DNA of 64,000 bases from a virus. Positions 12,095-56,949 of this stretch are shown here, piece after piece (within the stretch, counting starts at the first letter, position 1; each line of letters opens with the position of its first letter). The translations under genes were made by a program, and so were the position numbers. Under the pieces are notes generated by a model. The model was not told the DNA's origin and ran no database searches. It saw only the letters and a list, made by a program, of their open reading frames with translations. Location of the stretch: IMG/VR virus record IMGVR_UViG_3300037475_000199, positions 1-64,000 of that record; one strand, given 5' to 3'.

Positions 12095-12592
12095 ATGAAT
12101 AAATACAATTATACAATTAAAGATAACTACTTATTATTTTGGAGTGGTCACTTTTCTAATTGGTATCCCGCCTCATTTATTATAGGATCAATGACATTTA
12201 ATTGTGTTGAACAATATATGATGTACATGAAAGCTAAAACTTTTAATGACCAAGAGACTATGGATAAAGTTATGGCAACTTTAGATGCTAAAGAACAAAA
12301 GAAATTGGGTCGTGGAGTTAAAAACTTCAACCCTGTTGCTTGGGATCTTGTAAAGGAAGAAGTTGTTTATGATGGTTGTTTTGCTAAATATTTACAAAAC
12401 TTAGATCTTAAAGAAGATATTATTAAAACAAATGATTTAATGCTTGTTGAAGCATCTCCATATGATAAGATTTGGGGAATTGGAATGAGCGCAAAAGATC
12501 CTGATGTCACTGATGAAAGTAAGTGGAAGGGTGAAAATTTATTAGGCAAAGCCTTAATGAAAGTTCGAAATAAATTAAAAGGAAACGCATGA
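12095..12592 (+). CDS. NADAR (DUF1768/YbiA-like) domain protein, copy 1
   Basis: FWSGHFSNWYPASF...CVEQYMMYMKA...LLGKALMKVR matches the NADAR signature (F...S.FSNF...F.....EH.yQa.K). Confidence 0.55.
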   Translation: MNKYNYTIKDNYLLFWSGHFSNWYPASFIIGSMTFNCVEQYMMYMKAKTFNDQETMDKVMATLDAKEQKKLGRGVKNFNPVAWDLVKEEVVYDGCFAKYLQNLDLKEDIIKTNDLMLVEASPYDKIWGIGMSAKDPDVTDESKWKGENLLGKALMKVRNKLKGNA

Positions 12593-16078: not shown

Positions 16079-16082
16079 AAAT

Positions 16083-16177
16083 ATAAAGTTGCGTGAGTGG
16101 ATTAAACGATCACCCGAGTCAGGGTGAGAAAGAACTTATAAAAAGTCTTTCCAAAAGTTCGAATCTTTTACTTTATA
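16083..16177 (+). tRNA. aberrant type II tRNA-like gene (18-nt anticodon arm; possible 8-nt loop; pseudogene?)
   Basis: Acceptor ATAAAGT pairs with ACTTTAT. Three-bp D-stem CGT/ACG. Anticodon region TCACCCGAGTCAGGGTGA. Long variable hairpin GAAAGA...TCTTTC. T-arm AAAAG-TTCGAAT-CTTTT. No CCA. Confidence 0.35.
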
Positions 16178-16182
16178 TTTAT

Positions 16183-24270: not shown

Positions 24271-24345
24271 GCGAATGTAGTTCAATGGTAGAATCCGAGT
24301 TTTCCAAACTCGCTGTTGCAGGTTCAAGTCCTGTCGTTCGCTCCA
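24271..24345 (+). tRNA. tRNA-Gly (TCC)
   Basis: Acceptor GCGAATG pairs with CGTTCGC. D-arm GTTCAATGGTAGAAT. Anticodon stem CGAGT/ACTCG with loop TTTCCAA. T-arm GCAGG-TTCAAGT-CCTGT. U73 with CCA. Confidence 0.7.
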
Positions 24346-24460: not shown

Positions 24461-24544
24461 GCGGGTGTCGCATAGTGGCGATTGCGTCAGTTTTCCAAAC
24501 TGAAAATAAAAACACCGAAGGTTCGAGTCCTTTCACCCGCACCA
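24461..24544 (+). tRNA. tRNA-like gene with TCC anticodon loop and 13-nt unpaired variable region (aberrant Gly duplicate?)
   Basis: Acceptor GCGGGTG pairs with CACCCGC. Anticodon stem TCAGT/ACTGA with loop TTTCCAA. Variable region AAATAAAAACACC. T-arm GAAGG-TTCGAGT-CCTTT. A73 with CCA. Confidence 0.45.
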
Positions 24545-25036: not shown

Positions 25037-25097
25037 AATTAGTGCCCCTTGACACCTAATTTATAAAATTTAACTTAAGGGTACAGAGGATTATAAT

Positions 25098-26006
25098 ATG
25101 AATACGGCAGAACTAATTAAACAATTGCGTGAATTTACCCAAGCTGGGATGAAGGATTGTATTGATGCTTTAAAAGAATCTGGAAATGATTTAGAAAAAG
25201 CCATTGATATTATTAAAGTCAAAGGAAAAAACATTGTTTCTGGTCGTTCTGGTAGAATAGCATCAGAAGGTTTAGTGGTAATAAGATCATTACCATATAC
25301 AAATGCTATTGCTATGTTGGAAGTAAATTGTCAAACTGATTTCGTAGCTCGCAGCGAACAATTTCAATCATTAGCTAATATAGCTATGCAAGGCTTAGTT
25401 GTTGCAGTAACTAACAATCAAACATGGGATGGTAAAGACAATATAACTACTGCTGCTATTGAAAATGTAACTTCATCTACCAAAGAAAATATTGTTGTTC
25501 GTCGATGGTGGGTAGAAGAAGTAATTGATCCAACAGCCAAAGTATTTCATTATCTTCATAATGGAGATCAATTGGGAGTTATTCTTACTTTGCAAGCTCC
25601 TTCTGTTGAGGCGGCAAGCGACCCAAGATTTATTGCTCTTGGAAATGATTTAGCTATGCAAGTAGCCGCAATGAGTCCAGTAGCAATTTCAGCCGAGCAT
25701 GTATTGCCCGAGGTTAAAGAAAGGCAGCAAGCTATCTTTGAAACTCAATTAAAAGAAGCCAATAAACCAGAAACTGCCTGGGCAAAGATTTTAACTGGCA
25801 AGTTTAATAAGTGGTATTCTGAATCCTGTTTATTAGAACAGGAATCTGTGTTACATCCAAAATCTTCTGTTAAAGATGTTATTGCTTTAGTCTCTAAGCA
25901 GATTGGTGGAGATATTACTGTAGCTAATATGATTAGATGTCAAGTTGGTGAAGGTATAGTAAAAGAAAAAATTGGTTTAGCTGATGAAGTTGCAAAGTTA
26001 ATGTAA
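25098..26006 (+). CDS. tsf: translation elongation factor Ts (EF-Ts)
   Basis: N-terminal UBA-like LIKQLREFTQAGMKDCIDAL. Internal LEVNCQTDFVA is identical to the E. coli EF-Ts core motif. C-terminal RCQVGEGIVKEK compares with RFEVGEGIEK. Confidence 0.75.
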   Translation: MNTAELIKQLREFTQAGMKDCIDALKESGNDLEKAIDIIKVKGKNIVSGRSGRIASEGLVVIRSLPYTNAIAMLEVNCQTDFVARSEQFQSLANIAMQGLVVAVTNNQTWDGKDNITTAAIENVTSSTKENIVVRRWWVEEVIDPTAKVFHYLHNGDQLGVILTLQAPSVEAASDPRFIALGNDLAMQVAAMSPVAISAEHVLPEVKERQQAIFETQLKEANKPETAWAKILTGKFNKWYSESCLLEQESVLHPKSSVKDVIALVSKQIGGDITVANMIRCQVGEGIVKEKIGLADEVAKLM

Positions 26007-26332
26007 TGAATAATCCATCTAATCTAGAAGAAGCTTTTGTCCTATTAAAAGAAGATTTGTCAATCAAAGATCAAATTGAAATTTTAAATATGCAAAAAGA
26101 TGAATTATGTAGATTACATAATGGTTTAGGTAGATGGATTCGTAATAATTGGGACTTATGGAGTCATGGTTCCATGACTAAATTTTTTAATAACTTAGGT
26201 ATTCATCATGCAGATGATATGTCTGGAATTATTATAGAAAGTTTTTGGCATCATTTAAGGAATGAATCTTTAGATTTAGATAATCAAATTACTTACTATA
26301 AAGAGTTTTGGGCGTCACAGGAAAACAAATGA
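26006..26332 (+). CDS. hypothetical protein
   Basis: Its start overlaps the tsf stop. Confidence 0.4.
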   Translation: MNNPSNLEEAFVLLKEDLSIKDQIEILNMQKDELCRLHNGLGRWIRNNWDLWSHGSMTKFFNNLGIHHADDMSGIIIESFWHHLRNESLDLDNQITYYKEFWASQENK

Positions 26333-26896: not shown

Positions 26897-27598
26897 ATGA
26901 GTAAAATTATTTTATCATTAGAAAATGATCTACAAAAATCTAGATCTTTATTGAGTGATGTTCGAGAAGATATTGGGATGATACAAATATCTTCTCAAAT
27001 GCTGTTGAAATATGGTGATGAAGCTTTGTCTTTAAGCAAAGAATTTTCTATTCCATTATTTTTAGATTTAAAATTAAATGATATGCCTTCTTCTGTTCAA
27101 GAAACTATTCATATATTAGGTCAGAAATTATCCGGATATCATTATCCTCATTTACTTTCAATCCATTGTTTTGGCGGGAAAAATATGTGTAAAACTGCTG
27201 TTAATGCTGCCGCAATATATGATATTGGTATTGTTGGTGTAGGCATTATGAATTCAATAGAAACAAGAGATCTATATTCTTTTGGTGGAAGAGATGGTCG
27301 AGTTGGTCCAAGATCTATAGAATTAAATTTAAGAGTTAGTAGAGAAGGTGGCGTTAAAAATTTTATGTGTGGGGCGGAACAAGTAAAGTTAACTAGACAA
27401 TATTTTAAAGACGCACAAATTATTGCTACTGGCATTAGAGAGCCTGGCGAAGATTTTAATGATCATTTAAGAGTAAAACCAATTAATTTTGCATTGAAAA
27501 ATGGAGCTAACTGGGTTTTGATTGGAAGACCTATTCATAATTTCTTTTCGCCACAACAAGCTGTAAGTAGACTAAAGTTGCAGTCTGATAGATACTAA
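26897..27598 (+). CDS. orotidine-5'-phosphate decarboxylase family protein (PyrF-like)
   Basis: LFLDLKLNDMPSSV compares with DlKfhDIpnTv. IHCFGG compares with the vHa.gG motif. C-terminal IGRPI compares with vGRpI. Confidence 0.5.
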   Translation: MSKIILSLENDLQKSRSLLSDVREDIGMIQISSQMLLKYGDEALSLSKEFSIPLFLDLKLNDMPSSVQETIHILGQKLSGYHYPHLLSIHCFGGKNMCKTAVNAAAIYDIGIVGVGIMNSIETRDLYSFGGRDGRVGPRSIELNLRVSREGGVKNFMCGAEQVKLTRQYFKDAQIIATGIREPGEDFNDHLRVKPINFALKNGANWVLIGRPIHNFFSPQQAVSRLKLQSDRY

Positions 27599-27621: not shown

Positions 27622-27697
27622 TCGGGAATAGATTAATAGGCAAATCTCCATACTCTGAATATGGTAAGTGTTGGTTCGAGCCCAACTTCCCGATCCA
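27622..27697 (+). tRNA. tRNA-Gln (CTG)
   Basis: U1:A72 acceptor, TCGGGAA pairing with TTCCCGA. D-arm GATTAATAGGCAAATC. Anticodon stem CCATA/TATGG with loop CTCTGAA. T-arm GTTGG-TTCGAGC-CCAAC. CCA present. Confidence 0.65.
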
Positions 27698-27715: not shown

Positions 27716-28123
27716 ATGAAATCTATTGGTAAATTAATATATGAACCATCTAGCCACTTAGGATCAACCAAAAATTGGTTAGTTTTAATGTGTGATGATG
27801 AAATTGGCAAATATTATCGTCATTTATTTACTTTACAATATCCTTATTTAAATAATAATTATAATGGTAAATTAGCAAGACCTGTATTAGGATCTCACAT
27901 TAGTGTTGTAAGAGGAGAAAAAATTCAAAATTTGTATTTGTGTAAAAAAATAAATAACAAAATTATTGAATTTGAATATGATGGTGAGGTTAAAGATAAT
28001 TCAGAATATTTTTGGCTCAAGGTAAATTGCCCATTCTTGAATGATTTAAGAATTAATCTTGGATTATCTCCTATTCCAAAATTTGGGCTGCATCTTACAA
28101 TTGGTCGATCGACCAACTGTTAA
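27716..28123 (+). CDS. hypothetical protein
   Basis: ORF only. Confidence 0.4.
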   Translation: MKSIGKLIYEPSSHLGSTKNWLVLMCDDEIGKYYRHLFTLQYPYLNNNYNGKLARPVLGSHISVVRGEKIQNLYLCKKINNKIIEFEYDGEVKDNSEYFWLKVNCPFLNDLRINLGLSPIPKFGLHLTIGRSTNC

Positions 28124-28168
28124 AAGTATTATTTATCAAATAAATTAAACATTCAAGAAGAGTAATAA

Positions 28169-28855
28169 ATGTTAAACTTTCCGTCATTCAATTTATATTT
28201 AATTAGACATGGTCAATCTGAATCAAATGTTGATCCAGATAGAATGGGGCAAACTCCAGAGGTTCCATTAACAAGATTAGGAGAATCACAAAGTAATGCA
28301 TTAGGATCTAAATTAAGATCAGATGGTATTGTGTTTGATAGAATATTCTCTTCACCTTATACTAGGGCATTGTATACAGCACAAATTGTTAATTCATATT
28401 TTGGTAACCAAAATATTGTATTAGCTGATGATTTAAGAGAATATGATGCAGGTGATTGGAAAGGAACATCACGTAAAGAAACCGTAACTCCAGACATTAA
28501 ATTGTCAATGGGATACTTTACTAATGCTTTTGCTCCGCCCAATGGAGAATCATTAAATGCCGTTGAAAGAAGAGCTACTAAATGGCTAGATGATTTTATT
28601 ATGTTTAATAACGAAATCTTAACCCTTTCAGATAAAAAAATGTCTGACTCTAACAAGCCATTAGAGTTGGCTTGTTTTACTCATGGTATGACAATTAAAT
28701 GTTTACTGCATCATATTATGGGTTTTGATAAGAGTATAACTTGGAAAATTAGTGTAGATAATACATCTGTATCCAAGTTATCATTTGATCATGAAGGATG
28801 GAAAGTTCGCTATTTGAATAATTGTTCTCACTTAAGGGATAATTCATTTGCCTGA
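28169..28855 (+). CDS. histidine phosphatase (phosphoglycerate-mutase family)
   Basis: N-terminal LIRHGQSESN is the RHG catalytic motif. Confidence 0.55.
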   Translation: MLNFPSFNLYLIRHGQSESNVDPDRMGQTPEVPLTRLGESQSNALGSKLRSDGIVFDRIFSSPYTRALYTAQIVNSYFGNQNIVLADDLREYDAGDWKGTSRKETVTPDIKLSMGYFTNAFAPPNGESLNAVERRATKWLDDFIMFNNEILTLSDKKMSDSNKPLELACFTHGMTIKCLLHHIMGFDKSITWKISVDNTSVSKLSFDHEGWKVRYLNNCSHLRDNSFA

Positions 28856-29357
28856 AAGATCCAGAATAAAAAAAATTAGACAAAAAGTTATTGATCGTGA
28901 CGGGCTAATATGTTGTTATTGTGAAAATTTGTTATTGTTAACAGAAGTAACTATGGAACATATTGTTCCCATTTGTAAAAAGGGAACATTTAATACAACG
29001 AATTTAACTGTTGCATGTAAAGACTGTAATAATAAAAGAGACAATAAACCTTTTTTCAAATTTTGCAAAAACTTTAATTGGTCCACATCAAAAATAGATA
29101 AATATAGAAAATTATATTATAGTAATTTAAAAATTAAAATTCTTAATATTGCTAAAGAAAATTGTATTTCTGATATAGAAAAAGTAATTCCAGAAAATAT
29201 TATATCTCAATCTTGTTTGATTCTAAAAGTCAATCCTGCAAATTTTGATTCTTATTTTGCATTAGTTAGTATTTCTTCAAAAGAAACTTATACGCGGAAA
29301 GTGATAAAATTTTCTTTTGAAGAAATTATTAAAATAATTGAAAGCGAAACTCTTTGA
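28848..29357 (+). CDS. HNH endonuclease
   Basis: CCYCE...MEHIVP...NLTVACKDCNNKR is an HNH motif. Confidence 0.55.
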   Translation: MPERSRIKKIRQKVIDRDGLICCYCENLLLLTEVTMEHIVPICKKGTFNTTNLTVACKDCNNKRDNKPFFKFCKNFNWSTSKIDKYRKLYYSNLKIKILNIAKENCISDIEKVIPENIISQSCLILKVNPANFDSYFALVSISSKETYTRKVIKFSFEEIIKIIESETL

Positions 29358-29380
29358 TATAGTTGATGCAAGGAGTTTCA

Positions 29381-29665
29381 ATGAATATTAAACCAATTAG
29401 AGATTTAGTTGTTGTGACAAAAGAAGAAGGCGATAAAGTTTCCAGTGGAGGCATCCATTTAGTGGCAAGTGTAGATAAAGCTGCTGTAGGAACTGTTTTA
29501 GCTGTTGGATCAGGTTATGTTGCTGAAAATGGAACAATTGTTCCTTTAGAGGTTAAGGTTGGAGATCGAGTATCATTTAATAGACATGGTGTTCAAGAAG
29601 CTAGTGTTAATGGAGAAACTGTTTTGTTAGTTAGAGAAGATAGTCTTCTTTGTGTTATTAGTTAA
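29381..29665 (+). CDS. groES: co-chaperonin GroES (Hsp10)
   Basis: MNIKPIRDLVVV...GGIHL...GTVLAVGSG...VKVGDRVSF aligns along its whole length with bacterial GroES. ATG 29381 follows the AAGGAG Shine-Dalgarno. Confidence 0.7.
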   Translation: MNIKPIRDLVVVTKEEGDKVSSGGIHLVASVDKAAVGTVLAVGSGYVAENGTIVPLEVKVGDRVSFNRHGVQEASVNGETVLLVREDSLLCVIS

Positions 29666-29686
29666 TTATTAAATAATAAGTAATTC

Positions 29687-29715
29687 AAAAAGCCGCTTAT
29701 GCGGCTTTTTTATTT
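29687..29715 (+). terminator. intrinsic terminator
   Basis: AAAAAGCCGC-TTAT-GCGGCTTTTTTATTT hairpin and T-run. Confidence 0.7.
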
Positions 29716-29723
29716 GGTGTATT

Positions 29724-30314
29724 ATGAATTTTATAGATTGTGAATTTTGCGAAGATTGGAAACAAGAGAAAAAAATTAAGGAATCTTGTCCTTGTTGTGC
29801 TGGTCGTGGTAAAATTCAGAATCCTGAAGAACATTTATGCAATAATTGTGGGAGCAGAATGCACCCACCTAAATCAGATCCAAATTGGCAATTTCCTAAT
29901 GGTCTTAGTAGAGCAAAGGTTGTTGGAGATTATAGTTCTACACATTTAACAGATGATGTCATATATAGATTTTCTATTTGTGAATTTTGTTTAAGACTCA
30001 TGTTTAATAATTTTGTAATTCCTCCAGCCTTATCTGATAATAGGGCTGATGCTATTGAATTTGATTATAAGTTAGATAAAACAAATTATGAATATGAACA
30101 ATGGAGGCAGTCGGGCGGATTTTCTCAAGCTTATAAAAATAGAAAGTGTAATGCAGTTAAAGACTGTATAAATTCTGCTATTTATACTATACTTCATGGC
30201 AGTGATACTTTTGATGAAAAATGTGCTTGTGAAGAACATGTAAGTGAATATAGAAATTATAAATGGTATAAAATAGTTCCATTCATCCCAGATACACTAA
30301 AGGCATTTGTATGA
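29724..30314 (+). CDS. Cys-rich hypothetical protein
   Basis: Multiple CxxC motifs (CEFCEDW...CPCCAG...CNNCG). Confidence 0.4.
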   Translation: MNFIDCEFCEDWKQEKKIKESCPCCAGRGKIQNPEEHLCNNCGSRMHPPKSDPNWQFPNGLSRAKVVGDYSSTHLTDDVIYRFSICEFCLRLMFNNFVIPPALSDNRADAIEFDYKLDKTNYEYEQWRQSGGFSQAYKNRKCNAVKDCINSAIYTILHGSDTFDEKCACEEHVSEYRNYKWYKIVPFIPDTLKAFV

Positions 30315-30928
30315 AACAATATCCTTCAATAACTAAAGATGTTCGACAAGATACATATATTTATGCTTTTGATAAGTTAGATGGATCTAATATTAGAGCT
30401 GAATGGAATTATAAAAAAGGATTTTATAAATTTGGAAGTAGAACTCAGCTAATTGATTCCTCAAATAAACCTTTGGGAAAATCAATTAATTTGATTCAAG
30501 AAAAATATAGTGATGATTTAACAAGAATCTTTAAAGAACAACGCTATCAAGATGCTTTATGCTTCTTTGAATTCTATGGACCAAGCTCTTTTGCTGGATT
30601 ACATTCAGAAAACGAAGACCAAACAGTAATTCTGCTTGACGTCAACCCTTATAAGCAAGGCATAATGGAGCCAGAACAATTTATAAATTTGTTTGGCAGC
30701 CTAGACATACCTAAAGTCCTGTATCAAGGAAACGTAACAGCAGAGCTATTTGATAGCGTTAAACAGTCAACTTTAAAAGACATGACCCTGGAAGGCATTG
30801 TTTGTAAAGGAACTAATGACAAAAAAACTAAAATGCCAATTATGTTTAAAGTTAAATCTAATAAATGGCTAAATCTATTAAAAGAACACTGCAAAGGTGA
30901 TGAATCATTATTTACTAAATTAGCGTAA
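30311..30928 (+). CDS. RNA-ligase-like covalent nucleotidyltransferase (KxDGxN motif I)
   Basis: AFDKLDGSNIR is motif I. EFYGPSSFAG, EGIVCKG and FKVKSNKW resemble motifs III, IV and V of ATP-dependent RNA/DNA ligases. Confidence 0.45.
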   Translation: MKQYPSITKDVRQDTYIYAFDKLDGSNIRAEWNYKKGFYKFGSRTQLIDSSNKPLGKSINLIQEKYSDDLTRIFKEQRYQDALCFFEFYGPSSFAGLHSENEDQTVILLDVNPYKQGIMEPEQFINLFGSLDIPKVLYQGNVTAELFDSVKQSTLKDMTLEGIVCKGTNDKKTKMPIMFKVKSNKWLNLLKEHCKGDESLFTKLA

Positions 30929-33494: not shown

Positions 33495-33576
33495 TTAAAC
33501 ATATGTTTGAATCTGTTATATAGGTTCATGTTCCCAGAGAGGGAACTTTATAATTTAGACAACATGGAGAATGTTA

Positions 33577-34590
33577 ATGAAAAATTTTGAATTTTGTGTA
33601 TTTATTGGTCAATTTAGTCCATTCCATAATGGTCAATCTGCTATTCTTCAAGAAGCTTTAAATCAAGCAGAAACAGTTATTGTTGTCCTTGGTTCAGCTA
33701 AAAAGGCAAGAAACATTGAAGTTTCATGGAATGTCGAGCAACGCATTGAGATGATTAAGTCAACTCTTTCTGTCGAAGATCAGGTTCGTATTAAATTTGT
33801 TCCATTACGAGATCACATTTATAGTGATACAATTTGGGTAACTGAATTATTAGAAAAAATGACTCCCATTTTAAATGGATCAAAGAATGTTTCTTTGGTT
33901 TGTAGAGAAAAGTATAATAAAGAATATCTTAAATTGTTCCCGCAATGGGAATTAATCCCAGTTAAAACTACTGAGCCGCATCATGATGCGGAAGATATTA
34001 GACATCGTTATTTTACATATGATACATCTTATTCTCGTTTCGTTCACGAAAATGTAGCTAAGATGATGAAAGAATTTCAAGACACTCCAATCTTTCAAAC
34101 CTTAAAAAGTGACTTTGATTATGTCAAGAAATATAAGGCAGCATGGGAAGGCGCCCCATTTAAACCAATCTTTGTTACAGTAGATGCTGTAATTGTTAAA
34201 TCTGGACACGTACTTTTAGTGAAGCGTAAGGGTAATCCTGGTAAAGGGCAAATGGCATTACCAGGTGGATTTTTAGATCAAGAAGAGCTAATTGAAGATG
34301 CTGTTTTAAGAGAAGTAAAAGAAGAGACTGCTATTAAAATGTCTAAAGATGAACTTCGAGCCTGCATTACATATTCTGAAGTTTTTGATGCCAAAAATCG
34401 TTCATTGCGTGGGAGAACAATTACTCACGCATTTTTAATTGATTTAGGTTCCGGAACCCTACCAAAAGTAAAAGGTTCTGATGATGCAGAAAAAGCTTTT
34501 TGGCTTCCTTTGAACGAAGTCAAGGACCGTGAAGATGAATTTTTTGAAGATCATTTTCACATTATTAGTTCATTCACAAACAAACTATAA
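33577..34590 (+). CDS. natV: bifunctional NMN adenylyltransferase / Nudix hydrolase (NatV/NadM-Nudix type)
   Basis: N-terminal GQFSPFHNGQ is the nucleotidyltransferase (H/T)xGH-like motif. Nudix box GGFLDQEELIEDAVLREVKEETA. ATG 33577 after GGAGA. Confidence 0.6.
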   Translation: MKNFEFCVFIGQFSPFHNGQSAILQEALNQAETVIVVLGSAKKARNIEVSWNVEQRIEMIKSTLSVEDQVRIKFVPLRDHIYSDTIWVTELLEKMTPILNGSKNVSLVCREKYNKEYLKLFPQWELIPVKTTEPHHDAEDIRHRYFTYDTSYSRFVHENVAKMMKEFQDTPIFQTLKSDFDYVKKYKAAWEGAPFKPIFVTVDAVIVKSGHVLLVKRKGNPGKGQMALPGGFLDQEELIEDAVLREVKEETAIKMSKDELRACITYSEVFDAKNRSLRGRTITHAFLIDLGSGTLPKVKGSDDAEKAFWLPLNEVKDREDEFFEDHFHIISSFTNKL

Positions 34591-34633: not shown

Positions 34634-36085
34634 ATGAGAACAGTAATCGCAAGAAAAGAAGACTTAGAACATAGCAACGTTACCGACACTGATAGTTACA
34701 AGTTTAGCCATTTTATTTTATATAAGAAGGCTGGCGTAACTAGAATGTTTAGTTATCTAGAGTCTCGTGGTGGTGAATTTGATGTTTCTACTATTTCAGC
34801 CCTACAAGTAGCATTACATAGATACATTGCAAAAGGATTTAAGAGAAAGGACATTGATCGTGCAGAAAAGCTTGCAGCTAAACATGGCGTCCCTTTCAAT
34901 CGTCCAGGATTTGAAGCCATGTATAACAAATATAATGGTAAGTTTCCAGTTAGAATTAGATCTATTCCTGAAGGTATGATAGTTCCAGTTTCAACTGCAC
35001 TATTAACTATTGAGTGTTGTGACGAAGATTGTTTTTGGATTGTCAATTGGCTAGAGACTTTATTATCTAGAATTTGGTATCCTTCTACTATTGCAATTGC
35101 AAGTCGTTCAGTCAAGAAACTTTGGAAGCACTTCTTAGATATGACTTCCGATAATACTGATCTCGAAATTGGATTTAAGCATCATGATTTCGGATCTAGA
35201 GGAGTAACCTGCTTTGAGCAAGCCGAATTGGGCGGTATGGCTCACTTGTTGAGCTTCTTTGGTTCTGATACTTTAGCGGGTGTTGAGCTTGCCAATTACT
35301 ACTATGATTGTGATATGTCAGGATTCTCGATTTGTGCTACTGAACATTCTACCATGACTATTTTTGGTCGTGCTGGTGAACGTCAAGCACTTATTGATTG
35401 GATTACTGAAACATTGGTTAATGTTCCAAATATTCCTGGTGTACCTAAAGTGTCTGCTTGTGTTGGTGACAGCTACAATATCTATGATTTTACTACACTA
35501 GTAAGTCGTGATGATGAGGTAAGAAACTTAATTGCTAATTCAGGGGGCACTTTAGTAGTAAGACCAGATAGCGGTAAACCATCTGAAGTTCTTCCTAAAA
35601 TATTGGAATTGTTTGAGCAAAACTTGCCATCAGGATCTATTACTGTTAATAGTAAGGGATACAAAGTTCTACCTTCATATTTGAGACTTATTTGGGGTGA
35701 TGGCATTAACCGTCGTTCAATGAAAGATATTCTTCAATTAGTAGTTGATCTTGGTTGGAGTGCATCTAATATTGCGTTAGGTTCTGGTGGCGGTTTATTG
35801 CAAGATGTTAATCGTGATACACAGAAGTTTGCTTTTAAGTGTTCGTTTGCTGAAGCAAAAGGCGTCTCAATTGATGTTCTTAAAGATCCAATCACTGATC
35901 CTGGAAAGAAATCAAAAGCGGGTCGCCTTGACACTATTAAGCTTCCAGATGGTGAAATTAAAACAGTCTCCATTGGAGTAAATGAAGAATGTCATCCTCT
36001 TAGCATTATGAATACTGTTTTTGAAATGGGAGATATTACTTATCACACTACGTTCGCTGAATGTAGAGACAGAATGGCGCTATGA
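34634..36085 (+). CDS. nadV: nicotinamide phosphoribosyltransferase (NAMPT/NadV)
   Basis: DTDSYKFSHF near the N-terminus matches the NAMPT DSYK motif. About 480 aa, the size of NadV. Confidence 0.65.
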   Translation: MRTVIARKEDLEHSNVTDTDSYKFSHFILYKKAGVTRMFSYLESRGGEFDVSTISALQVALHRYIAKGFKRKDIDRAEKLAAKHGVPFNRPGFEAMYNKYNGKFPVRIRSIPEGMIVPVSTALLTIECCDEDCFWIVNWLETLLSRIWYPSTIAIASRSVKKLWKHFLDMTSDNTDLEIGFKHHDFGSRGVTCFEQAELGGMAHLLSFFGSDTLAGVELANYYYDCDMSGFSICATEHSTMTIFGRAGERQALIDWITETLVNVPNIPGVPKVSACVGDSYNIYDFTTLVSRDDEVRNLIANSGGTLVVRPDSGKPSEVLPKILELFEQNLPSGSITVNSKGYKVLPSYLRLIWGDGINRRSMKDILQLVVDLGWSASNIALGSGGGLLQDVNRDTQKFAFKCSFAEAKGVSIDVLKDPITDPGKKSKAGRLDTIKLPDGEIKTVSIGVNEECHPLSIMNTVFEMGDITYHTTFAECRDRMAL

Positions 36086-37970: not shown

Positions 37971-38885
37971 ATGTGTAATGTACTCGTAGGCACAGCTGTT
38001 GGTGATGCTTTAGGTGTTCCATTTGAAACTTTTTTGATAAATAATCCTCTTCTTTTAGATTGGGATGGAACAACTTATCTTGGAAGTAAATATCATGGTT
38101 TAGAACCAGGTCAATACTCAGATGACACTCAACTATCTATTTTGGTTGCTAAATCATTAATATTAAATTCTGGATTTAATCCAGACGATTTAGCTGCAAG
38201 ATATCAAGATTGGTTTTTTTCTGGCGTTGCACGAGGTTATGGTAAAACAACAAAGTTAGCTATGGAAGCTCTTAAAAGTGGTAAACATTGGAATGAATCT
38301 GGGATTGCCGGCTCTTTAGGTAATGGAACGGCTATGCGTGCAGCTCCATTTGGAGTTTACTTTAGAAATGATTTTAAACAATTAATTGCTGCAGTAAAAA
38401 TAGATTCAGCAATTACGCATGTTTCAGAAGATGCTGAAGCTGGAGCTATTGCTATTGCATTAACAGCAGCTTATGCCGTTAATCGTAACACTGAAAATCT
38501 TTTAGACAAAATTTGTGAAAATTTACCAGACTGTAAAGTTAAAAAAACAATTTCTAGTTTGGATGCATTAATTAACGCAGATAATATTACTCCTCCACAA
38601 GCTTTAAGAGTATTGGGGACAAAGGCTAATGTACAAGAAACTGTGCCCGCAGCATTATATTGTTTTCTGAAATTTGATAATTATCACGATGCTGTGCTTG
38701 CTGCAATTAAAGCTGGTGGTGATACCGACACTACTGCCGCAATAGTTGGAGCTTTATTTGGAGCCAGAGATGGAATCAAAAAGATAGATAGAAAATTTTA
38801 TTCGGTAGAAGATTTTGATAAATTAATAGAGTTAGATAGCCAGCTTTATAACAGATCTAATTCATTATTTTTTCCTAGAAACTAA
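37971..38885 (+). CDS. ADP-ribosylglycohydrolase (ARH/DraG family)
   Basis: N-terminal VLVGTAVGDALGVPFE matches the ARH GdAlG...E motif. C-terminal AGGDTDTTAAIVGALFGA is the metal-binding D-T-D region. Confidence 0.6.
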   Translation: MCNVLVGTAVGDALGVPFETFLINNPLLLDWDGTTYLGSKYHGLEPGQYSDDTQLSILVAKSLILNSGFNPDDLAARYQDWFFSGVARGYGKTTKLAMEALKSGKHWNESGIAGSLGNGTAMRAAPFGVYFRNDFKQLIAAVKIDSAITHVSEDAEAGAIAIALTAAYAVNRNTENLLDKICENLPDCKVKKTISSLDALINADNITPPQALRVLGTKANVQETVPAALYCFLKFDNYHDAVLAAIKAGGDTDTTAAIVGALFGARDGIKKIDRKFYSVEDFDKLIELDSQLYNRSNSLFFPRN

Positions 38886-40444: not shown

Positions 40445-40473
40445 CATTTTTAAATGATTAGGATAGTGAAATG
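40445..40473 (+). promoter_or_regulatory. sigma70-like promoter (TTGACT-17-TAGGAT) within an ATGTG...CACAT inverted repeat
   Basis: Hexamers at the correct spacing. AAATGTGTGGTCTTGACTGCACATTT forms an inverted repeat over the -35. Confidence 0.35.
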
Positions 40474-40929
40474 GAAAACCACGAAACACCAGAAGCTATT
40501 AAAGCAAGGGCTGAACAAGCGGACCCTCTTGTTATGTATTTAATAGTAAGAGAAGAGTTAGAAATGAGTATTGGTAAAGCTTGTGCTCAATGCGCTCATG
40601 CTAGCCAAATGATCACTTTAAAATATTTGCCATTATATATTAAATATTTTGAAAAAGATATTGAGAATTCTGGTTGGATTGATAAAAGTTCATATGAAAG
40701 TTACTTAAGTTTTGTTGAATGGCTTGCCGGTTCTTTTCGTAAAGTGGTTCTTAAATCAGATGAAAAAGAATGGGTTAAAATCAAAAACGAGTTACCCAAC
40801 AACTCAATAATCGTTGTTGATGCGGGTTTAACCGAGCTTCAACCAAATACAGAAACAGTAATTGGTCTTTGGCCAATGAAAAGAAGTGAACGACCCAAAA
40901 TAATCAAAAAATTGCAAGTTTTAACATGA
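40471..40929 (+). CDS. peptidyl-tRNA hydrolase, PTH2 family
   Basis: PLVMYLIVREELEMSIGKACAQCAHAS aligns with the PTH2 core ([25 protein letters not shown]). Confidence 0.6.
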   Translation: MENHETPEAIKARAEQADPLVMYLIVREELEMSIGKACAQCAHASQMITLKYLPLYIKYFEKDIENSGWIDKSSYESYLSFVEWLAGSFRKVVLKSDEKEWVKIKNELPNNSIIVVDAGLTELQPNTETVIGLWPMKRSERPKIIKKLQVLT

Positions 40930-41255: not shown

Positions 41256-41503
41256 AAGTTATAGGATATCACCTAACTGAAATTAAAAAGGGTATTCTCG
41301 GCAAATCTTCTAAAATTCAAGAAGAGTTAGATGAATTGGTGGATGCCGAATTACAAAACAATAAAATATTAGCTTTAGTAGAGCTATCAGATTTATATGG
41401 AGCTTTGGAGGCTGTCGCTTCTTCTTACAATTGTTCTATGGATGATTTAAAGAAGATGTCTGATGCCACCAAAAGAGCGTTTACTAGCGGACATAGGAAA
41501 TGA
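41246..41503 (+). CDS. MazG-like nucleotide pyrophosphohydrolase (small all-alpha NTP-PPase)
   Basis: IQEELDELVDAELQNNKILALVELSDLYGALEAVA matches the EExxE...E..D pattern of MazG/HisE-type domains. Confidence 0.45.
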   Translation: MEIKVIGYHLTEIKKGILGKSSKIQEELDELVDAELQNNKILALVELSDLYGALEAVASSYNCSMDDLKKMSDATKRAFTSGHRK

Positions 41504-42039
41504 TTGATTATCACTTGATATCTAATTGTATTAAAAAATACGAAGATTTAGGTTACAAGTATATAGATGTTCCTTGGTTTACTACTGAAAAAATAGTTAA
41601 TATTACTTTGCCACCAGGCAAAAAACCTTTTCATATAAATAATGATTATTTAGTAGGTTCAGCAGAACAGTCTTTTTTACATTTAATTTTAGCTGGCGAA
41701 TTAAAAGATGGTAAATATGTTGCCGCTTCACCATGCTTTAGAGACGATGAAATAGATCAATATCATCAAAAATATTTTTTTAAAGTTGAACTGATTAATT
41801 ATTCCAATAGTTATAAGTTTGATTATTTTGATTTAATGAATGTTATTTCTGATGCACAAAGGACGTTATCTTCTTTATGTACCAAAACAATAAAATCTTC
41901 AAAAACAAATGAAGGCGTTGATTTATCAATAAATGATATTGAAATTGGATCATATGGTATACGACAATTTAGTAACTTTAATTGGATTTATGGAACTGGC
42001 TTGGCAGAGCCAAGATTTTCGAGTTTAAATTATGGATGA
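41500..42039 (+). CDS. mini class-II aminoacyl-tRNA-synthetase-like catalytic core
   Basis: Motif-2-like CFRDDEIDQYHQKYFFKVE (fRxE...H..F...E) and motif-3-like GTGLAEPRF (GxGxGxxR). Only 179 aa. Confidence 0.35.
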   Translation: MIDYHLISNCIKKYEDLGYKYIDVPWFTTEKIVNITLPPGKKPFHINNDYLVGSAEQSFLHLILAGELKDGKYVAASPCFRDDEIDQYHQKYFFKVELINYSNSYKFDYFDLMNVISDAQRTLSSLCTKTIKSSKTNEGVDLSINDIEIGSYGIRQFSNFNWIYGTGLAEPRFSSLNYG

Positions 42040-44087: not shown

Positions 44088-44278
44088 ATAAAAAATATTT
44101 TGTAGTTTATTATGTTTGGGACACTTTTCGAGGGTGGAATGGTCCAATGAATATTCTTATAGATAAACATCCCTTAAAGTGGCTTAAAGAAGATAAGATT
44201 GCGTTATCAAAAGAACATAGTTGGGATGACATTTCTATTTCTTGGTGGCAATTATTAGAGGAAGATTATGACAAATAA
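44084..44278 (+). CDS. small hypothetical protein
   Basis: ATGA overlap. Confidence 0.3.
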   Translation: MNKKYFVVYYVWDTFRGWNGPMNILIDKHPLKWLKEDKIALSKEHSWDDISISWWQLLEEDYDK

Positions 44279-45029
44279 AGATAGTTTAGGCGACAGAATA
44301 AAGGCTTATGAGGATTGTTATAGAGTACAATTACCTCAAAGAATGCCAGTTATTCTTAGGGTTGATGGCAAATCATTTCATAATTATACCAAAGGTTGTA
44401 AAAGACCTGTTGACGAGAACCTTGTCAATTGTATGAATGAGACAGCAAAATATCTTTGTGAAAATATTCAGGGAGCAAAATTAGGATATGTACAATCAGA
44501 TGAAATATCTATATTATTAACTAACTATGAAACAATAAATACGCAATCATGGTTCGATAATAATTTGGTTAAAATGGTTAGCATATCTTCGGCTTTAGCT
44601 TCAGCTAAATTTACCTCTATTTCTGACACTATTTTTGGTAAGCCTAAAATGGCAGTTTTTGACAGTCGAGCTTTTGTAGTTCCAGTTAATGATGTTTGTA
44701 ATTATTTTTTATGGAGACAACAAGATTGTACCAGAAATTCAGTTCAAATGTTAGCTAGAAGTCTTTATTCTCATAAAGAATGTAATAATAAGAACAATTC
44801 TCAATTGCAAGAGATGTGCTTTCAAAAAGGTATTAATTGGAATGATTGCCCTACATCTCAAAAACGTGGTAGATGTATAATTAAACAATACAAGGTTAAA
44901 ACTGGAACTAATATTAAAACTGGCGAACAATTTTCTGCAGAACGTTCCAGTTGGGAAGTTGATAACGAAATTCCAATTTTCTCATTAGATAGAAATTATA
45001 TTAATAAACTAATAATTCTTAAAGACTAA
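44268..45029 (+). CDS. tRNA(His) guanylyltransferase Thg1-like protein (TLP)
   Basis: VILRVDGKSFHNYT compares with the Thg1 rIDGkkFH motif. KRPVDEN compares with the PxDE motif. YVQSDEISILL compares with GESDEYSFI. Confidence 0.6.
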   Translation: MTNKDSLGDRIKAYEDCYRVQLPQRMPVILRVDGKSFHNYTKGCKRPVDENLVNCMNETAKYLCENIQGAKLGYVQSDEISILLTNYETINTQSWFDNNLVKMVSISSALASAKFTSISDTIFGKPKMAVFDSRAFVVPVNDVCNYFLWRQQDCTRNSVQMLARSLYSHKECNNKNNSQLQEMCFQKGINWNDCPTSQKRGRCIIKQYKVKTGTNIKTGEQFSAERSSWEVDNEIPIFSLDRNYINKLIILKD

Positions 45030-50642: not shown

Positions 50643-51506
50643 ATGAATTTAAAAATTTTTAAATCCGAAATTGATAGCAGTATAAATATAGTAGAAAAAC
50701 AATTAGTTGGATTTCTTGAATCTCGTTTTGTAAGAAAATGTAATGATTATTTTATTGCATATTTATCTTCTCAAACGGGATGCAATCGTGGCTGTACGTT
50801 TTGTCATCTAACTGCAACAGGGCAAACTTCTTTTACAGATTCTAGCCATAATGATTTTATGGCTCAAGCCATTCAAATTTTTAAACACTATAGAAAACAA
50901 ACGGTCAATGCAAAGTATATGCATTATAATTTTATGGCTCGTGGCGAACCATTAGCAAATAAAATTTTGCTTGAATCGGGCGACGAGTTGTTAGTTAAAC
51001 TTGGGCAGGTTGCTAAGGAAGAGGGATTGCCAGCAAAGTTTAATATCTCAACTATTATGCCAATAAGCTTAAAGAAATCATTAGTTACAACATTTAACTA
51101 TGTTAATCCAACAATTTACTATTCTTTATATTCTACCGACAAAGAATGGCGAAAGAAATGGATGCCTGCAGCAATGGATACTACTGATGCACTGAATCTT
51201 TTGAAAGATTATCAAGATTTTTCTAAAAAAATTATTAAAATACATTATCCTTTTATCGCTGGTGAAAATGATTCAGTTGAAGAGATTAATAATGTTTGTG
51301 ATGCTATAGAAAAAGTCAAACTTAATTGTGAATTTAATTTAGTTCGTTATAATCCAGCTTCTCCAGATCAAGGAATAGAGTCTTCGCAAGAGGTTATTGC
51401 TCGTAATATAGAAATTATTTCCAATAGATTTCAATTTAATGGAAAGGTACAAATTATTCCGAGAGTAGGATTCGATGTAAAGGCATCGTGCGGAATGTTT
51501 GTTTAA
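50643..51506 (+). CDS. RlmN/Cfr-like radical-SAM RNA methyltransferase (short form)
   Basis: SSQTGCNRGCTFCHLTATGQ parallels the RlmN motif SSQVGCALECKFCSTAQQG. MARGEPLAN parallels MGMGEPLLN. A C-terminal Cys sits in KASCGMF. Confidence 0.5.
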   Translation: MNLKIFKSEIDSSINIVEKQLVGFLESRFVRKCNDYFIAYLSSQTGCNRGCTFCHLTATGQTSFTDSSHNDFMAQAIQIFKHYRKQTVNAKYMHYNFMARGEPLANKILLESGDELLVKLGQVAKEEGLPAKFNISTIMPISLKKSLVTTFNYVNPTIYYSLYSTDKEWRKKWMPAAMDTTDALNLLKDYQDFSKKIIKIHYPFIAGENDSVEEINNVCDAIEKVKLNCEFNLVRYNPASPDQGIESSQEVIARNIEIISNRFQFNGKVQIIPRVGFDVKASCGMFV

Positions 51507-54184: not shown

Positions 54185-55690
54185 ATGGCAGAGAAATTAG
54201 TTGCTTATTCGGCAGGCGAAGAACCGTCTTTTCCTGGAGATTATGATGTAGTAAAAAGGACTACATTAAATTTTACAGACATTATTAACAACAACAATAA
54301 ATATTATAATTTAGAAGTTCAAGTTGCTAAGAATGGCAGTTCAAGAATTTTTACTCAGTATGGTCGAGTAGGCGGAACGGCAGCCAAAGAATATCGAGTA
54401 GCAGCTAATCAGTCTCATGCTGAAACTGAAGCCGAAAAAATTATCAAGTCCAAAACTAAAAAGGGCTATGTTGAAGTTAAATTGGTAAAAGCTGATATTG
54501 GGTCCGAAGCAGGCAAGGCTAAAGTTGATACTTCAGCTTCTAGCGTATCAGTTGATACACTTAAAAAGATGGGTGTTAAAGTTCAGGAAGCAGAAACCAG
54601 TAAATTACATCCTGAAATTGGAGATTTAGTTAGAACTTGGTTCGGCGTTACACAGGAATTTATTGAATTAAATCTTGACACTAAAAAGTGTCCATTAGGT
54701 CAATTATCGATTGATCAAATTGATAAAGCAAAAGAAATATTAGATGAAGCTCGTTTAATTATTCATGCATCTAAACCAGATGTATTAGAATTAAATAAAT
54801 TAACTAACTCTTATTATAGTAACATTCCTCATAACTTTGGTTATGGTAGAATTAATGCCGATGTACTTCGTTTAGACAACGATGATAAGGTAAATAAAGC
54901 TTTTGATATATTAGATGTTTTTGGTTCAGCTAAAAACGTTCAAAGTGTTATTTCAAAGAAATCGGCTGTAGACTCTCAGTATGCCACTTTAAATGCTGAT
55001 TTAAATTTTATTGATCCAAAAGATCCTATTTGGAAATGGATTGACACTATGTTGCATGAGACTAAAGCTAGCAATCATCATTTCTTAGGCAAATTAAAAA
55101 CTCATAAAATTTATAAAGTAAATCGTAAAGGTGAAGAACAGTATTTTCTTAAGAATGCAGAGAAGATTGCTAAAGAATGTGGAAAGCATGATCCTTCTCC
55201 AGTTTACTCTAAATTAGTTAAATCTCGCCCAGATGTATCAAAAGAGCTAAGAGATTTGTATGCAAGAGCTAACGTTTCTCCTGGTTGGCATGGAACTCGT
55301 AGAGCTAATATGATTGGCATTACTACTAAAGGTCTTTTAATTAGACCTTCAGGTGTAGTTCATGCTGGTTCAATGTATGGTGACGGTGTTTACTGGGCTA
55401 CTAATAGTACTAAGAGCATCAATTACTGTGATGTTCGTGGCTCATATTGGGCTGCTGGTACAAATAAAACGGCTTATTTATTCTTAGGTGATGTTGCTTT
55501 TGGTAATTATAAATATGCTAATGGCTCACAATATTATAATAGAAAGAATATTTCGCCAGCACATTCTGTTTTTGCTCAAGGCGGGAAGAGCGGAGTATTG
55601 AATGACGAAATTATTACTTATACTCCATCGGGTCCAGAGCAACAACATTGTTTAAGATATATTATTGAATTCGAAACACAAGCAAAATGA
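54185..55690 (+). CDS. PARP-like ADP-ribosyltransferase (WGR domain plus PARP catalytic domain; H-Y-D variant)
   Basis: WGR-like YYNLEVQ...QYGRVGG. Catalytic WHGTRRANMIGI...GSMYGDGVYWA carries the H-G-T motif and Tyr. YLFLGDVAFGNY aligns with PARP1 LLLGEVALG, with Asp in place of the catalytic Glu. Confidence 0.6.
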   Translation: MAEKLVAYSAGEEPSFPGDYDVVKRTTLNFTDIINNNNKYYNLEVQVAKNGSSRIFTQYGRVGGTAAKEYRVAANQSHAETEAEKIIKSKTKKGYVEVKLVKADIGSEAGKAKVDTSASSVSVDTLKKMGVKVQEAETSKLHPEIGDLVRTWFGVTQEFIELNLDTKKCPLGQLSIDQIDKAKEILDEARLIIHASKPDVLELNKLTNSYYSNIPHNFGYGRINADVLRLDNDDKVNKAFDILDVFGSAKNVQSVISKKSAVDSQYATLNADLNFIDPKDPIWKWIDTMLHETKASNHHFLGKLKTHKIYKVNRKGEEQYFLKNAEKIAKECGKHDPSPVYSKLVKSRPDVSKELRDLYARANVSPGWHGTRRANMIGITTKGLLIRPSGVVHAGSMYGDGVYWATNSTKSINYCDVRGSYWAAGTNKTAYLFLGDVAFGNYKYANGSQYYNRKNISPAHSVFAQGGKSGVLNDEIITYTPSGPEQQHCLRYIIEFETQAK

Positions 55691-56949
55691 AAATTGGATT
55701 ATTAACATTTCCCAGATTAACCAATAATTTTGCTGAGGGTAGACCAACTCTACTTGCACAAAAGCTGGAACCATCAGTATTATTTTTATCTCCATCTTAT
55801 GGAGAATTAGTCTTTATAGAAGACAACGTTCCTAGAGATGATATTGATTTATACTTATGTTCTGTATATACTCGTGGTTTAAGTGAGTTTATTACGTTTT
55901 CAAAGGCAGTAGGTAGAGACAAAGTAATTGCCGGAGGATATCATCCAACAGCAATGCCAGAAGAAATGCTGCCTTACGCTCATAAAGTAGTTACTGGTTA
56001 TTGTGACAACATCGATCAAATCATTGATGGTCCCACTGGAGTATCTAAAGGTTCTTTTGGTTTTACTAAGATGCGAAGAGATCTTGTTGATATGAAGTCA
56101 ATGACTCAAATTTATCCGGATATTTATCCAGATGATATTAGTGGTTCAATGGTTTCTTCTGTCGGATGTCCTTATGATTGTGACTTTTGCTCAACTCCAT
56201 CTATGTCTGGCAGAAAAATGCGAACAGCCAGCTTAGATTATGTAGCAGAAGAAATTGAAGACCTATTAAAGCATAATGTTACTACTGTTTTTATTAGAGA
56301 TGAAAGTTTTGCAACTCATCCAATGATGGCTGAAGTAGCTCCTTTATTTAAAGATAAATTTAAAGTTTTATATTCATTTGGAACCTCTGGTGTCTTTGCT
56401 AAAAAGCCAGAATTACTTAAAGTCTTAAAAGAGAGCGGCTGGCATTCTCTTAATATTGGATTAGAAGACGTTGGGGTAAAATATAGAAAAAATCTTAACT
56501 TAAAAATGGGTGTTGAAAATATTCATCGTAATGGTCTTCAACACGTAATGTCATTCATTGTAAATGATGATGGAAAATCTTTAGAAGAAGCTAAAGCAAA
56601 CTATAATTCTTTATATGATGCCTTTATAGATCTTAAACCATTGCAAGTTTGCGCGAACTTTTTGATGCCTTTTCCAGGAACGCAATTATGGCAATCATAT
56701 AAAGATCGTATGTCAGAAAAAGATTTTGATAATTTTGATTCAAAAACACCTATTTTTACTAAAGGTCCGATGCATGAATGGCACAAGAGGATGTTAGTTG
56801 CTGTACAACTCAAGTATTATTTAAGTGATTCTTATAATAAGAATGTAAGAAACTTTAATTGTGGAGATACGCTTAATCTTAGGATGAATGAGTTGCAAAA
56901 AGAATTTGGTTTAGATAATTTGTCGTGGGATAAACTATTAGAAATATGA
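55687..56949 (+). CDS. B12-binding-domain radical-SAM enzyme
   Basis: CPYDCDFC is the CxxxCxxC motif. N-terminal VIAGGYHPTAMPEEM resembles the class B cobalamin-binding region. ATGA overlap with the PARP gene indicates translational coupling. Confidence 0.55.
   Translation: MKIGLLTFPRLTNNFAEGRPTLLAQKLEPSVLFLSPSYGELVFIEDNVPRDDIDLYLCSVYTRGLSEFITFSKAVGRDKVIAGGYHPTAMPEEMLPYAHKVVTGYCDNIDQIIDGPTGVSKGSFGFTKMRRDLVDMKSMTQIYPDIYPDDISGSMVSSVGCPYDCDFCSTPSMSGRKMRTASLDYVAEEIEDLLKHNVTTVFIRDESFATHPMMAEVAPLFKDKFKVLYSFGTSGVFAKKPELLKVLKESGWHSLNIGLEDVGVKYRKNLNLKMGVENIHRNGLQHVMSFIVNDDGKSLEEAKANYNSLYDAFIDLKPLQVCANFLMPFPGTQLWQSYKDRMSEKDFDNFDSKTPIFTKGPMHEWHKRMLVAVQLKYYLSDSYNKNVRNFNCGDTLNLRMNELQKEFGLDNLSWDKLLEI

Follow-up and report, generated by a model that had tools for sequence, protein, structure and literature searches.

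Gene identity and domain make-up

The stretch of DNA considered here (positions 1 to 64,000 of the IMG/VR virus record IMGVR_UViG_3300037475_000199, analysed at its full 64 kb and hereafter called the window) carries a tsf-like gene that encodes a full-length, long-form elongation factor Ts (EF-Ts) of 302 amino acids (aa). All four modules of the long form (N-terminal domain, core with its two subdomains, coiled-coil and C-terminal module) were found in the encoded protein. The gene, its putative ribosome-binding signal and the parts of its product are arranged as follows:

25098..26006 (stop codon included), + strand: tsf-like gene, full-length long-form EF-Ts, 302 aa (open reading frame (ORF) call, ATG start)
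25086..25090, + strand: Shine-Dalgarno-like GAGGA, 7 nt upstream of the EF-Ts ATG (direct sequence reading)
25098..25223, + strand: UBA-like three-helix N-terminal domain, aa 1-42 (AlphaFold2 (AF2) helices 3-14, 18-27 and 32-42; alignment to 1efu_B)
25335..25346, + strand: TDFV motif, aa 80-83 (sequence position; clade residue table)
25479..25511, + strand: segment of core subdomain N, T128-K129-E130-N131...R135-R136-W137-W138 (alignment; residue table)
25707..25826, + strand: helical hairpin, aa 204-243, the coiled-coil/dimerisation module of long-form EF-Ts (AF2 helices 204-220 and 225-243)
25944..26003, + strand: C-terminal module, aa 283-302, VGEGI...LADEVAKLM (alignment to E. coli 264-277)

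A first reading of this DNA, made from the letters without database searches (the sequence-only reading), had recognized an EF-Ts gene with exactly this extent, and had named a PF00889 profile search as a way to check it. That the ORF encodes an intact EF-Ts is confirmed by matches far beyond chance, both to PF00889 (EF_TS; E-value 2.8e-45, 154.9 bits against a Pfam cutoff of 27, model positions 2-204 of 204) and to the NCBIfam equivalog TIGR00116 ('tsf'; 217.1 bits against a curated cutoff of 104.05, model positions 5-291 of 293 aligned). Furthermore, EF-Ts chains were the only significant sequence matches in the PDB (M. tuberculosis 7vmx_A, 3.7e-27; E. coli 1efu_B, 6.9e-26; T. thermophilus 1aip_C), and the AF2 model of the phage protein (built on a multiple sequence alignment of 45 relatives; mean predicted local distance difference test score (pLDDT) 87, predicted template-modelling score (pTM) 0.72) retrieved EF-Ts chains as its best 20 matches when compared with the PDB by Foldseek (1efu_B, E-value 3.9e-21). 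The template-modelling (TM) scores between this model and full-length EF-Ts chains ranged from 0.55 to 0.68, and the large root-mean-square deviation from the PDB structures is attributable to a different orientation of the domains.

At the level of single modules, the UBA-like N-terminus that had been proposed has weak Pfam support (UBA_4, PF14555: 19.2 bits, under the cutoff of 21.8), together with a good alignment of residues 3-54 to residues 4-54 of E. coli EF-Ts and a predicted three-helix bundle; the E. coli counterpart of this domain touches domain I of EF-Tu. The LEVNCQTDFVA core, likewise proposed, is present and identical to the E. coli EF-Ts core, and it places the TDFV motif at residues 80-83. 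The helical hairpin aligns to E. coli residues 180-228 (match to 1tfe with a TMt of 0.88), whereas the C-terminal module, whose E. coli homologue reaches EF-Tu domain I, was modelled with low pLDDT at its extreme end. In a scan for promoters and terminators, shuffled controls contained more promoter-like sites than the real sequence did, and nothing downstream of the EF-Ts gene made a convincing terminator.

Phage origin of the window

As the gene had been described as phage-borne, its assignment was weighed against the possibility that the window is a piece of bacterial chromosome (or bacterial DNA that contaminates a viral bin) and the gene the housekeeping tsf of the cell. Such an interpretation can draw on the universal presence of EF-Ts in bacteria, on 10 EF-Ts matches in deposited 'phage' records that resemble bacterial contamination, and on the fact that scans of part of the ORFs in the 64 kb identified no gene for a capsid, portal or terminase protein (the source record extending to 70.9 kb). 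It is at odds with the layout of the window, in which 106 of the 112 ORFs lie on the same strand, the tRNA genes are scattered and ORFans are many (window GC content ~30%). Bacterial tsf usually resides in a conserved rpsB-tsf-pyrH-frr neighbourhood; none of rpsB, pyrH or frr adjoins the EF-Ts gene. The gene differs from a housekeeping tsf, moreover, in being virus-encoded and in having the codon composition of the phage.

To evaluate the genomic context, the sequences flanking other EF-Ts genes (in viral loci and in the tsf loci of GTDB species representatives) were compared with every ORF of the window. In each of the 80 closest bacterial tsf loci (among the matches listed) EF-Ts was the sole gene in common with the window. 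A first scan yielded 18 viral loci with 10-28 collinear window genes and one short contig (L006, 4.9 kb) with four, and a second, broader scan of IMG/VR brought the syntenic contigs to ~27 distinct ones in all (up to 480 kb, GC 29-48%), with 6-28 collinear genes in common with the window. Collinear homologues were found for 28 window ORFs in a 447.8-kb IMG/VR contig (L017) and for 18 in a 20.9-kb locus (L021; 27-66% identity). The window is also syntenic with SR-VP_PHAGE_CIR_35_26 (GCA_902731525.1, ERS4026373; 462,167 bp in a single contig; EF-Ts 58% identical), a circular huge-phage genome from vernal-pool mud (Al-Shayeb et al. 2020; PMC7162821), the scaffold of which was placed in the published terminase and major-capsid trees (PMC7162821). 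Since no virion gene was seen in the window, its assignment rests on synteny with genomes that have such genes. The collinearity with this curated, circular 462-kb phage, and an EF-Ts identity to bacteria of at most 40% (among the matches listed) as compared to 52-77% for the metagenomic relatives, render a chromosomal or contaminant origin exceedingly improbable. We thus regard the window as phage DNA, and the description of the gene as phage-borne withstood the comparison that could have overturned it.

Two sets of candidates were discarded during these searches. The 10 tblastn matches mentioned above (31-36% identity, among 50,697 deposited phage records) were set aside as contamination or unrelated, and include a Salmonella whole-genome-shotgun contig as well as unannotated 'phage' records of 300-386 kb. 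A 13-kb 'viral' contig (L019/L154, IMGVR_UViG_2690316066_000016) was found to carry the EF-Ts of E. coli itself (first 60 residues identical) and was rejected as a host fragment or contaminant. A megablast search with 24 kb of the window against phages produced a single match of 44 nt (in the NMNAT gene), indicating that there are no close cultured relatives. The accompanying claim that DNA phages very rarely carry such genes is borne out for cultured and deposited phages (no credible match in the 50,697 records and no matching family in a PHROGs scan of the protein, PHROGs holding no EF-Ts family with which to classify it), and does not extend to the huge phages, in which EF-Ts was published in 2020 and where more than 100 sequence clusters of the present lineage occur in metagenomes.

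Relatives, ancestry and selection

A large word-indexed search recovered more than 120 clusters at 52-77% identity to the window EF-Ts, all of them metagenomic and several situated on contigs of 447-491 kb; the nearest relatives (70-77% identical) are all on unpublished metagenome contigs, and identical contigs are present in SRR12917118. When 1.84 billion representatives were searched exhaustively, the top identities were 53, 50, 50 and 47%, followed by a continuous downward ladder. Among cellular genomes (185,579 bacterial and archaeal species, covered by a motif-seeded search), the best of the matches listed were those of Polyangiaceae and other Myxococcota (37-40%), followed by Nostocales cyanobacteria (33-38%).

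A neighbour-joining distance tree was computed for 202 EF-Ts sequences with 200 bootstrap replicates. The classical bootstrap of the exact phage clade was only 0-2%, owing to unlabelled representatives of 50% clusters that move in and out of it, and was therefore replaced by two tests: whether named bacteria are excluded, and which named group joins first. All 200 replicates kept every named bacterium outside the synteny-verified phage EF-Ts, and the Myxococcota were the first named group to join the latter in 194 of 200, which supplies the phylogeny that the sequence-only reading had wanted for identifying the donor lineage. Loci at 41-50% identity were found on IMG/VR contigs of 268-473 kb, most of them with the same gene block beside EF-Ts (detailed below), so the unlabelled ladder between the core clade and the Myxococcota is at least partly viral. 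In a residue table built on 120 EF-Ts sequences of the phage clade (with E. coli numbering as reference), Q16, R51 and T125 emerged as derived states common to the Myxococcota and the phage clade, while K20, D/E24 and K126 of the phage clade are missing from myxococcotal EF-Ts. The published annotation of a clade member names Sorangium cellulosum as best match (GenBank file of Al-Shayeb et al. 2020).

On these grounds we propose, with moderate confidence, that the gene was captured long ago from a lineage resembling myxobacteria, with the proviso that the myxococcotal placement may be an artefact of the distance methods, of biased sampling of bacteria or of long branches. The EF-Ts of Polyangiales/Myxococcota are the closest cellular relatives of the phage protein, yet they diverge from it by more than 60%, and the transfer would not be recent, as the gene is fully ameliorated within phage DNA of ~30% GC. 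An AT-rich and fully ameliorated gene is uninformative with regard to the present host, which need not be a myxobacterium.

The phage EF-Ts gene is under purifying selection: among 17 phage tsf genes (Nei-Gojobori method, 46 pairs with unsaturated synonymous divergence, dS) the ratio of nonsynonymous to synonymous divergence (dN/dS) had a median of 0.16, with 0.057 for the closest pair and 0.18 for the window against L017 (70% identical). These values are hard to reconcile with a recently captured passenger or a decaying gene that has no function in the phage. For such a view one may adduce that random pickup of host genes by phages does occur and that another translation factor of the lineage, EF-G, has evidently been less stable. 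In L001, L004, L007/L008, L009, L010 and L011 a full-length EF-G gene (697 aa; 108..2201 in L010) is present two genes upstream of RNase HII, ~8-10 kb from EF-Ts in the sister genomes; it is cut to a 28-aa remnant in L012 (1535..1618) and is absent from the window, evidence that the lineage can lose genes for translation factors. Within the lineage EF-G thus seems to be subject to gain or loss, whereas EF-Ts stays. Against the passenger view, the EF-Ts reading frame is intact in all members of the lineage, the GC content at third codon positions (GC3) is fully ameliorated (19.5%, versus 18.7 +/- 4.4% for the window ORFs), and the position of the gene is kept across genomes of widely different GC (29-48%); the low identity to bacteria given above points the same way, and we hold the passenger view to be barely credible. 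Selection, phage-like GC3 and a conserved position in the block indicate that the gene was acquired once, long ago, and has since been inherited vertically; we interpret EF-Ts as a long-established core gene of one lineage of huge (~270-490 kb) environmental phages.

Comparison with published viral EF-Ts

Phage-encoded EF-Ts is already published, including a full-length annotation in this clade. Elongation factors G, Tu and Ts were reported in huge phages (Al-Shayeb et al. 2020, Nature 578:425; PMC7162821), and GD_PHAGE_CIR_35_878, which adjoins SR-VP_PHAGE_CIR_35_26 in the published terminase tree, has an annotated 'Elongation factor Ts' of 308 aa (PMC7162821), with an N-terminus similar to that of the window protein. 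The clade of SR-VP_PHAGE_CIR_35_26 has, like the window, a long-form EF-Ts in the same gene neighbourhood (FA_hydroxylase, EamA, RNase HII, EF-Ts, His_Phos_1, HNH, Cpn10 and NMNAT-Nudix being common to both). The window EF-Ts forms a distinct sub-branch with respect to that clade, and the window is without the EF-G of several sister genomes.

A second, short form of EF-Ts (~190 aa, Thermus-like) is encoded on ~25 other IMG/VR contigs (L139-L160; up to 536 kb). These differ from the window in sharing merely one or two genes with it (no synteny) and in their separate tree placement; they correspond to the 585-nt 'Elongation factor Ts' coding sequences of several GD/BM huge-phage GenBank files (Al-Shayeb et al. 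2020). The short form is most likely an independent acquisition.

The 2020 study named EF-Ts and contained no residue-level, selection or phylogenetic analysis of it, and our literature search turned up no study in which a viral EF-Ts was analysed or tested. What is new here is the lineage-wide conservation, the selection estimate, the affinity to Myxococcota and the signature of the interface with EF-Tu. Phage elongation factors are among the clearest signs that the largest phages seize parts of the translation cycle, beyond the supply of tRNAs. The occurrence of EF-Ts in a widespread environmental lineage, in a conserved block together with GroES and RNA-repair-like enzymes, marks it as no occasional passenger. 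Although it opens no new category by itself, the family is well suited to be the first viral EF-Ts examined biochemically.

Proposed function and EF-Tu-contact residues

The gene probably supplies the infected cell with a functional guanine-nucleotide-exchange factor for the host EF-Tu, by which translation is sustained. According to this canonical interpretation, EF-Ts would be expressed from the phage operon after infection and would bind host EF-Tu-GDP through its N-terminal domain and core, whereupon insertion of the Asp-Phe pair of TDFV would expel Mg2+ and GDP; EF-Tu would thereby be recycled to its GTP form, and elongation on phage mRNAs could go on when host tsf expression or the nucleotide pool collapses in the course of a long infection. 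Both the retention of exchange activity despite changed interface residues and the benefit of sustained translation are here inferred. Huge-phage elongation factors were proposed to maintain translation efficiency (PMC7162821), and the remodelling or protection of host translation suggested by the sequence-only reading is a reasonable inference that agrees with that published hypothesis. The nearby genes for translation and RNA maintenance (tRNAs, Cpn10, PTH2, Thg1, a 2H phosphoesterase, an RNA-ligase-like and a distantly RlmN/Cfr-like protein, with EF-G in sister genomes) fit the canonical interpretation through their common theme, which is an association and not a proof.

In E. coli, TDFV (residues 79-82) drives Mg2+ out of EF-Tu and opens up its nucleotide site (PMC3747624), and K51, D80, F81, I125 and G126 of EF-Ts were termed vital (PMC9529903). 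The M. tuberculosis protein, which is without the C-terminal module, bonds to EF-Tu domain I through R13 and K24 (PMC9529903), and its residue at the K23 position makes a salt bridge to EF-Tu. EF-Tu-contact residues are also known to vary between bacterial species (PMC9529903). The 'G54' of the same study (PMC9529903) was not used, given that mature E. coli numbering has G53 and N54 there.

Whether the EF-Tu-binding residues are conserved, as the sequence-only reading had asked, has a divided answer. Across the 120 clade sequences the TDFV motif is kept almost without exception (T in 119, D and F in all 120, V in 119), the residues R11, M18 and H154 (E. coli R12, M19 and H147) are invariant, and K51 is replaced by an equally invariant arginine (R50 in the window protein), which is a conservative swap. 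H147, M19 and M20 are taken by us to be EF-Tu-binding sites on the strength of earlier mutagenesis work in E. coli and serve as a lead only. In comparison with E. coli EF-Ts (1EFU), the phage protein has the same four modules, the same core, the equivalents of R12, M19 and H147 and a similar predicted fold (TM 0.60-0.64); it is set apart by an identity of ~30% and by K, I, D, T and K at the positions of M20, K23, K24, I125 and G126. In our view the catalytic apparatus is predicted to be intact, while part of the docking surface bears a lineage-specific signature.

With respect to the substrate, tblastn detected no EF-Tu gene, either in the window or across the 20-kb phage loci (EF-Tu-like matches in these loci turned out on inspection to be EF-G). 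A motif scan identified 43 IMG/VR contigs that encode EF-Tu (L161-L203; several of 370-620 kb), none of which carries the long-form EF-Ts of the window's lineage, and different huge-phage lineages appear to carry different elongation factors. As no EF-Tu was seen in the window or in the contigs of the lineage, the phage EF-Ts likely works on host EF-Tu, a host substrate, instead of a phage-encoded one, being the most economical interpretation.

Several points weigh against this canonical interpretation. The EF-Tu scan used exact 8-mers from one EF-Tu on mostly incomplete contigs, so a divergent phage EF-Tu is possible. Host cells are normally rich in EF-Ts, and the gain from an extra copy is assumed. 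Moreover, a number of contact positions are changed throughout the clade: M20 is lysine in 118 of the 120 sequences (K19 in the window protein), K24 is clade-wide aspartate or glutamate (D23), I125 is threonine in 112 and G126 lysine in 119 (T128 and K129), and the K23 position varies (K, H, N or I; I22 in the window protein and its nearest relative). Such substitutions could alter the affinity or specificity for EF-Tu, and may equally reflect adaptation to a particular EF-Tu. Considering that contact residues differ among bacteria as well, these changes are no argument against EF-Ts membership or function.

The same substitutions lend some interest to the idea that the protein guards EF-Tu against host defences, i.e. 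that it binds host EF-Tu and blunts those systems which cleave or co-opt it, either by shrinking the pool of EF-Tu-GDP or by covering up domain I of EF-Tu, with nucleotide exchange as a secondary activity. EF-Tu is cleaved by the Lit protease and by type IV Thoeris, and its open GDP form is specifically recruited by Avs7 as a structural enhancer (PMC13581612), so that all three systems act through EF-Tu; furthermore, interface changes that are fixed in the clade (K20, D/E24, K126) and missing from the closest bacterial EF-Ts are what would be expected if binding had been retuned. However, pure sequestration has no need of an invariant TDFV, no defence or anti-defence gene is tied to the block, and EF-Tu is among the most abundant proteins of the cell, for which reason stoichiometric masking needs very high expression. 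We deem a role of this kind unlikely. A combined variant, in which M20K, K24D/E, I125T and G126K shift EF-Tu away from its GDP/open form or mask it while elongation is still supported, is a decidedly tentative proposition; if true, a retuned EF-Ts that shields EF-Tu from Lit, type IV Thoeris and Avs7 would amount to an anti-defence strategy based on a translation factor.

It is also conceivable that EF-Ts, alone or with host EF-Tu, serves a phage enzyme as subunit or as chaperone, in the manner seen with Qbeta replicase. The replicase of Leviviridae has EF-Tu and EF-Ts subunits (PMC13581612), the entries 3mmp, 3agp and 4r71 are among the structural matches of the phage protein, and a GroES gene is part of the same conserved block. 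That precedent, though, concerns an RNA phage that employs host proteins and not a DNA phage that encodes its own copy, and no partner enzyme is apparent; since the conserved exchange motif and the presence of every EF-Ts module are more simply explained by canonical function, a structural role is judged very unlikely.

Gene neighbourhood of EF-Ts

The genes around EF-Ts comprise an ORFan, a DUF6794 gene, an OMPdecase-like gene, a tRNA gene and genes for 2H-phosphoesterase-like, His_Phos_1, HNH and Cpn10 proteins; together with two further genes of the translation theme they are placed as follows:

24271..24345 and 24461..24544, + strand: two tRNA-Gly(UCC) genes upstream of the EF-Ts unit (ARAGORN, Rfam)
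26006..26332, + strand: DUF6794 gene, its ATG overlapping the EF-Ts stop codon (TAATG) (sequence, Pfam)
26897..27598, + strand: OMP-decarboxylase-family protein (PF00215, E-value 5.9e-19), between EF-Ts and tRNA-Gln (Pfam)
27622..27697, + strand: tRNA-Gln(CUG), inside the block (ARAGORN, Rfam)
27716..30928, + strand: block travelling with EF-Ts across the phage lineage (Pfam; collinear homologues in L001-L017, L021 and L104-L129)
27716..28123, + strand: 2H-phosphoesterase-like protein (Pfam)
28169..28855, + strand: His_Phos_1, histidine phosphatase (Pfam)
28848..29357, + strand: HNH nuclease (Pfam)
29363..29665, + strand: Cpn10/GroES (Pfam)
29724..30314, + strand: protein without a family name, in the block
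30311..30928, + strand: RNA-ligase-like protein (Pfam RNA_ligase, 25.9 bits, just below cutoff)
40471..40929: PTH2 (profile match)
44268..45029: Thg1 (profile match)

EF-Ts and the DUF6794 gene probably form a single transcription and translation unit, as judged from their overlap. The order EF-Ts, 2H phosphoesterase, histidine phosphatase, HNH, Cpn10, unnamed gene and RNA-ligase-like gene is conserved in the lineage, and the block beside EF-Ts looks like an RNA (tRNA) healing-and-sealing module. The OMPdecase-like gene is found in only some of the sister genomes (L004, L009 and L010).

GroES, PTH2 and Thg1 had all been anticipated in the window by the first reading and are verified at the coordinates listed. 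Its estimate of about 22 tRNAs proved too high, the scattered tRNA genes numbering 17 by ARAGORN and 15 by Rfam. An additional peculiarity concerns 16082..16178 (+ strand), directly after tRNA-Cys and tRNA-Ser, where ARAGORN places a 97-nt tRNA with no assigned identity and a four-base anticodon ('agtc'); it is not reported by the Rfam model, and could be intron-containing, degenerate or a false call.

The RlmN-like protein of the same reading survives as a distant radical-SAM likeness: the product of 50643..51506 (+ strand) matches the catalytic part of Cfr/RlmN at 60-66 bits, far from the family cutoffs of 290-550, so the RlmN label is overstated. Another radical-SAM protein (55687..56949, + strand) shows a likeness to B12-binding radical-SAM methyltransferases at no more than 62 bits, far under the cutoffs. 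An ORF of 179 aa (41500..42039, + strand) matches the core of class II aminoacyl-tRNA synthetases (D/K/N type) at 22 bits (cutoff 25); together with a small ORF upstream it is conserved beside EF-Ts in L011, L016, L115, L121 and L122, and it may be a synthetase fragment or paralogue.

A final observation concerns a PARP-like protein (54185..55690, + strand) with WGR, PARP regulatory and PARP catalytic domains (E-value ~1e-17 each). As the window also encodes an ADP-ribosylglycohydrolase, a NADAR protein, an NMNAT-Nudix protein and NAMPT (ORFs 37971..38885, 12095..12592, 33571..34590 and 34634..36085), a NAD+ salvage and ADP-ribosylation writer/eraser set appears to be complete on this phage; the NAD+ systems of jumbo phages are reportedly the topic of a 2024 paper.

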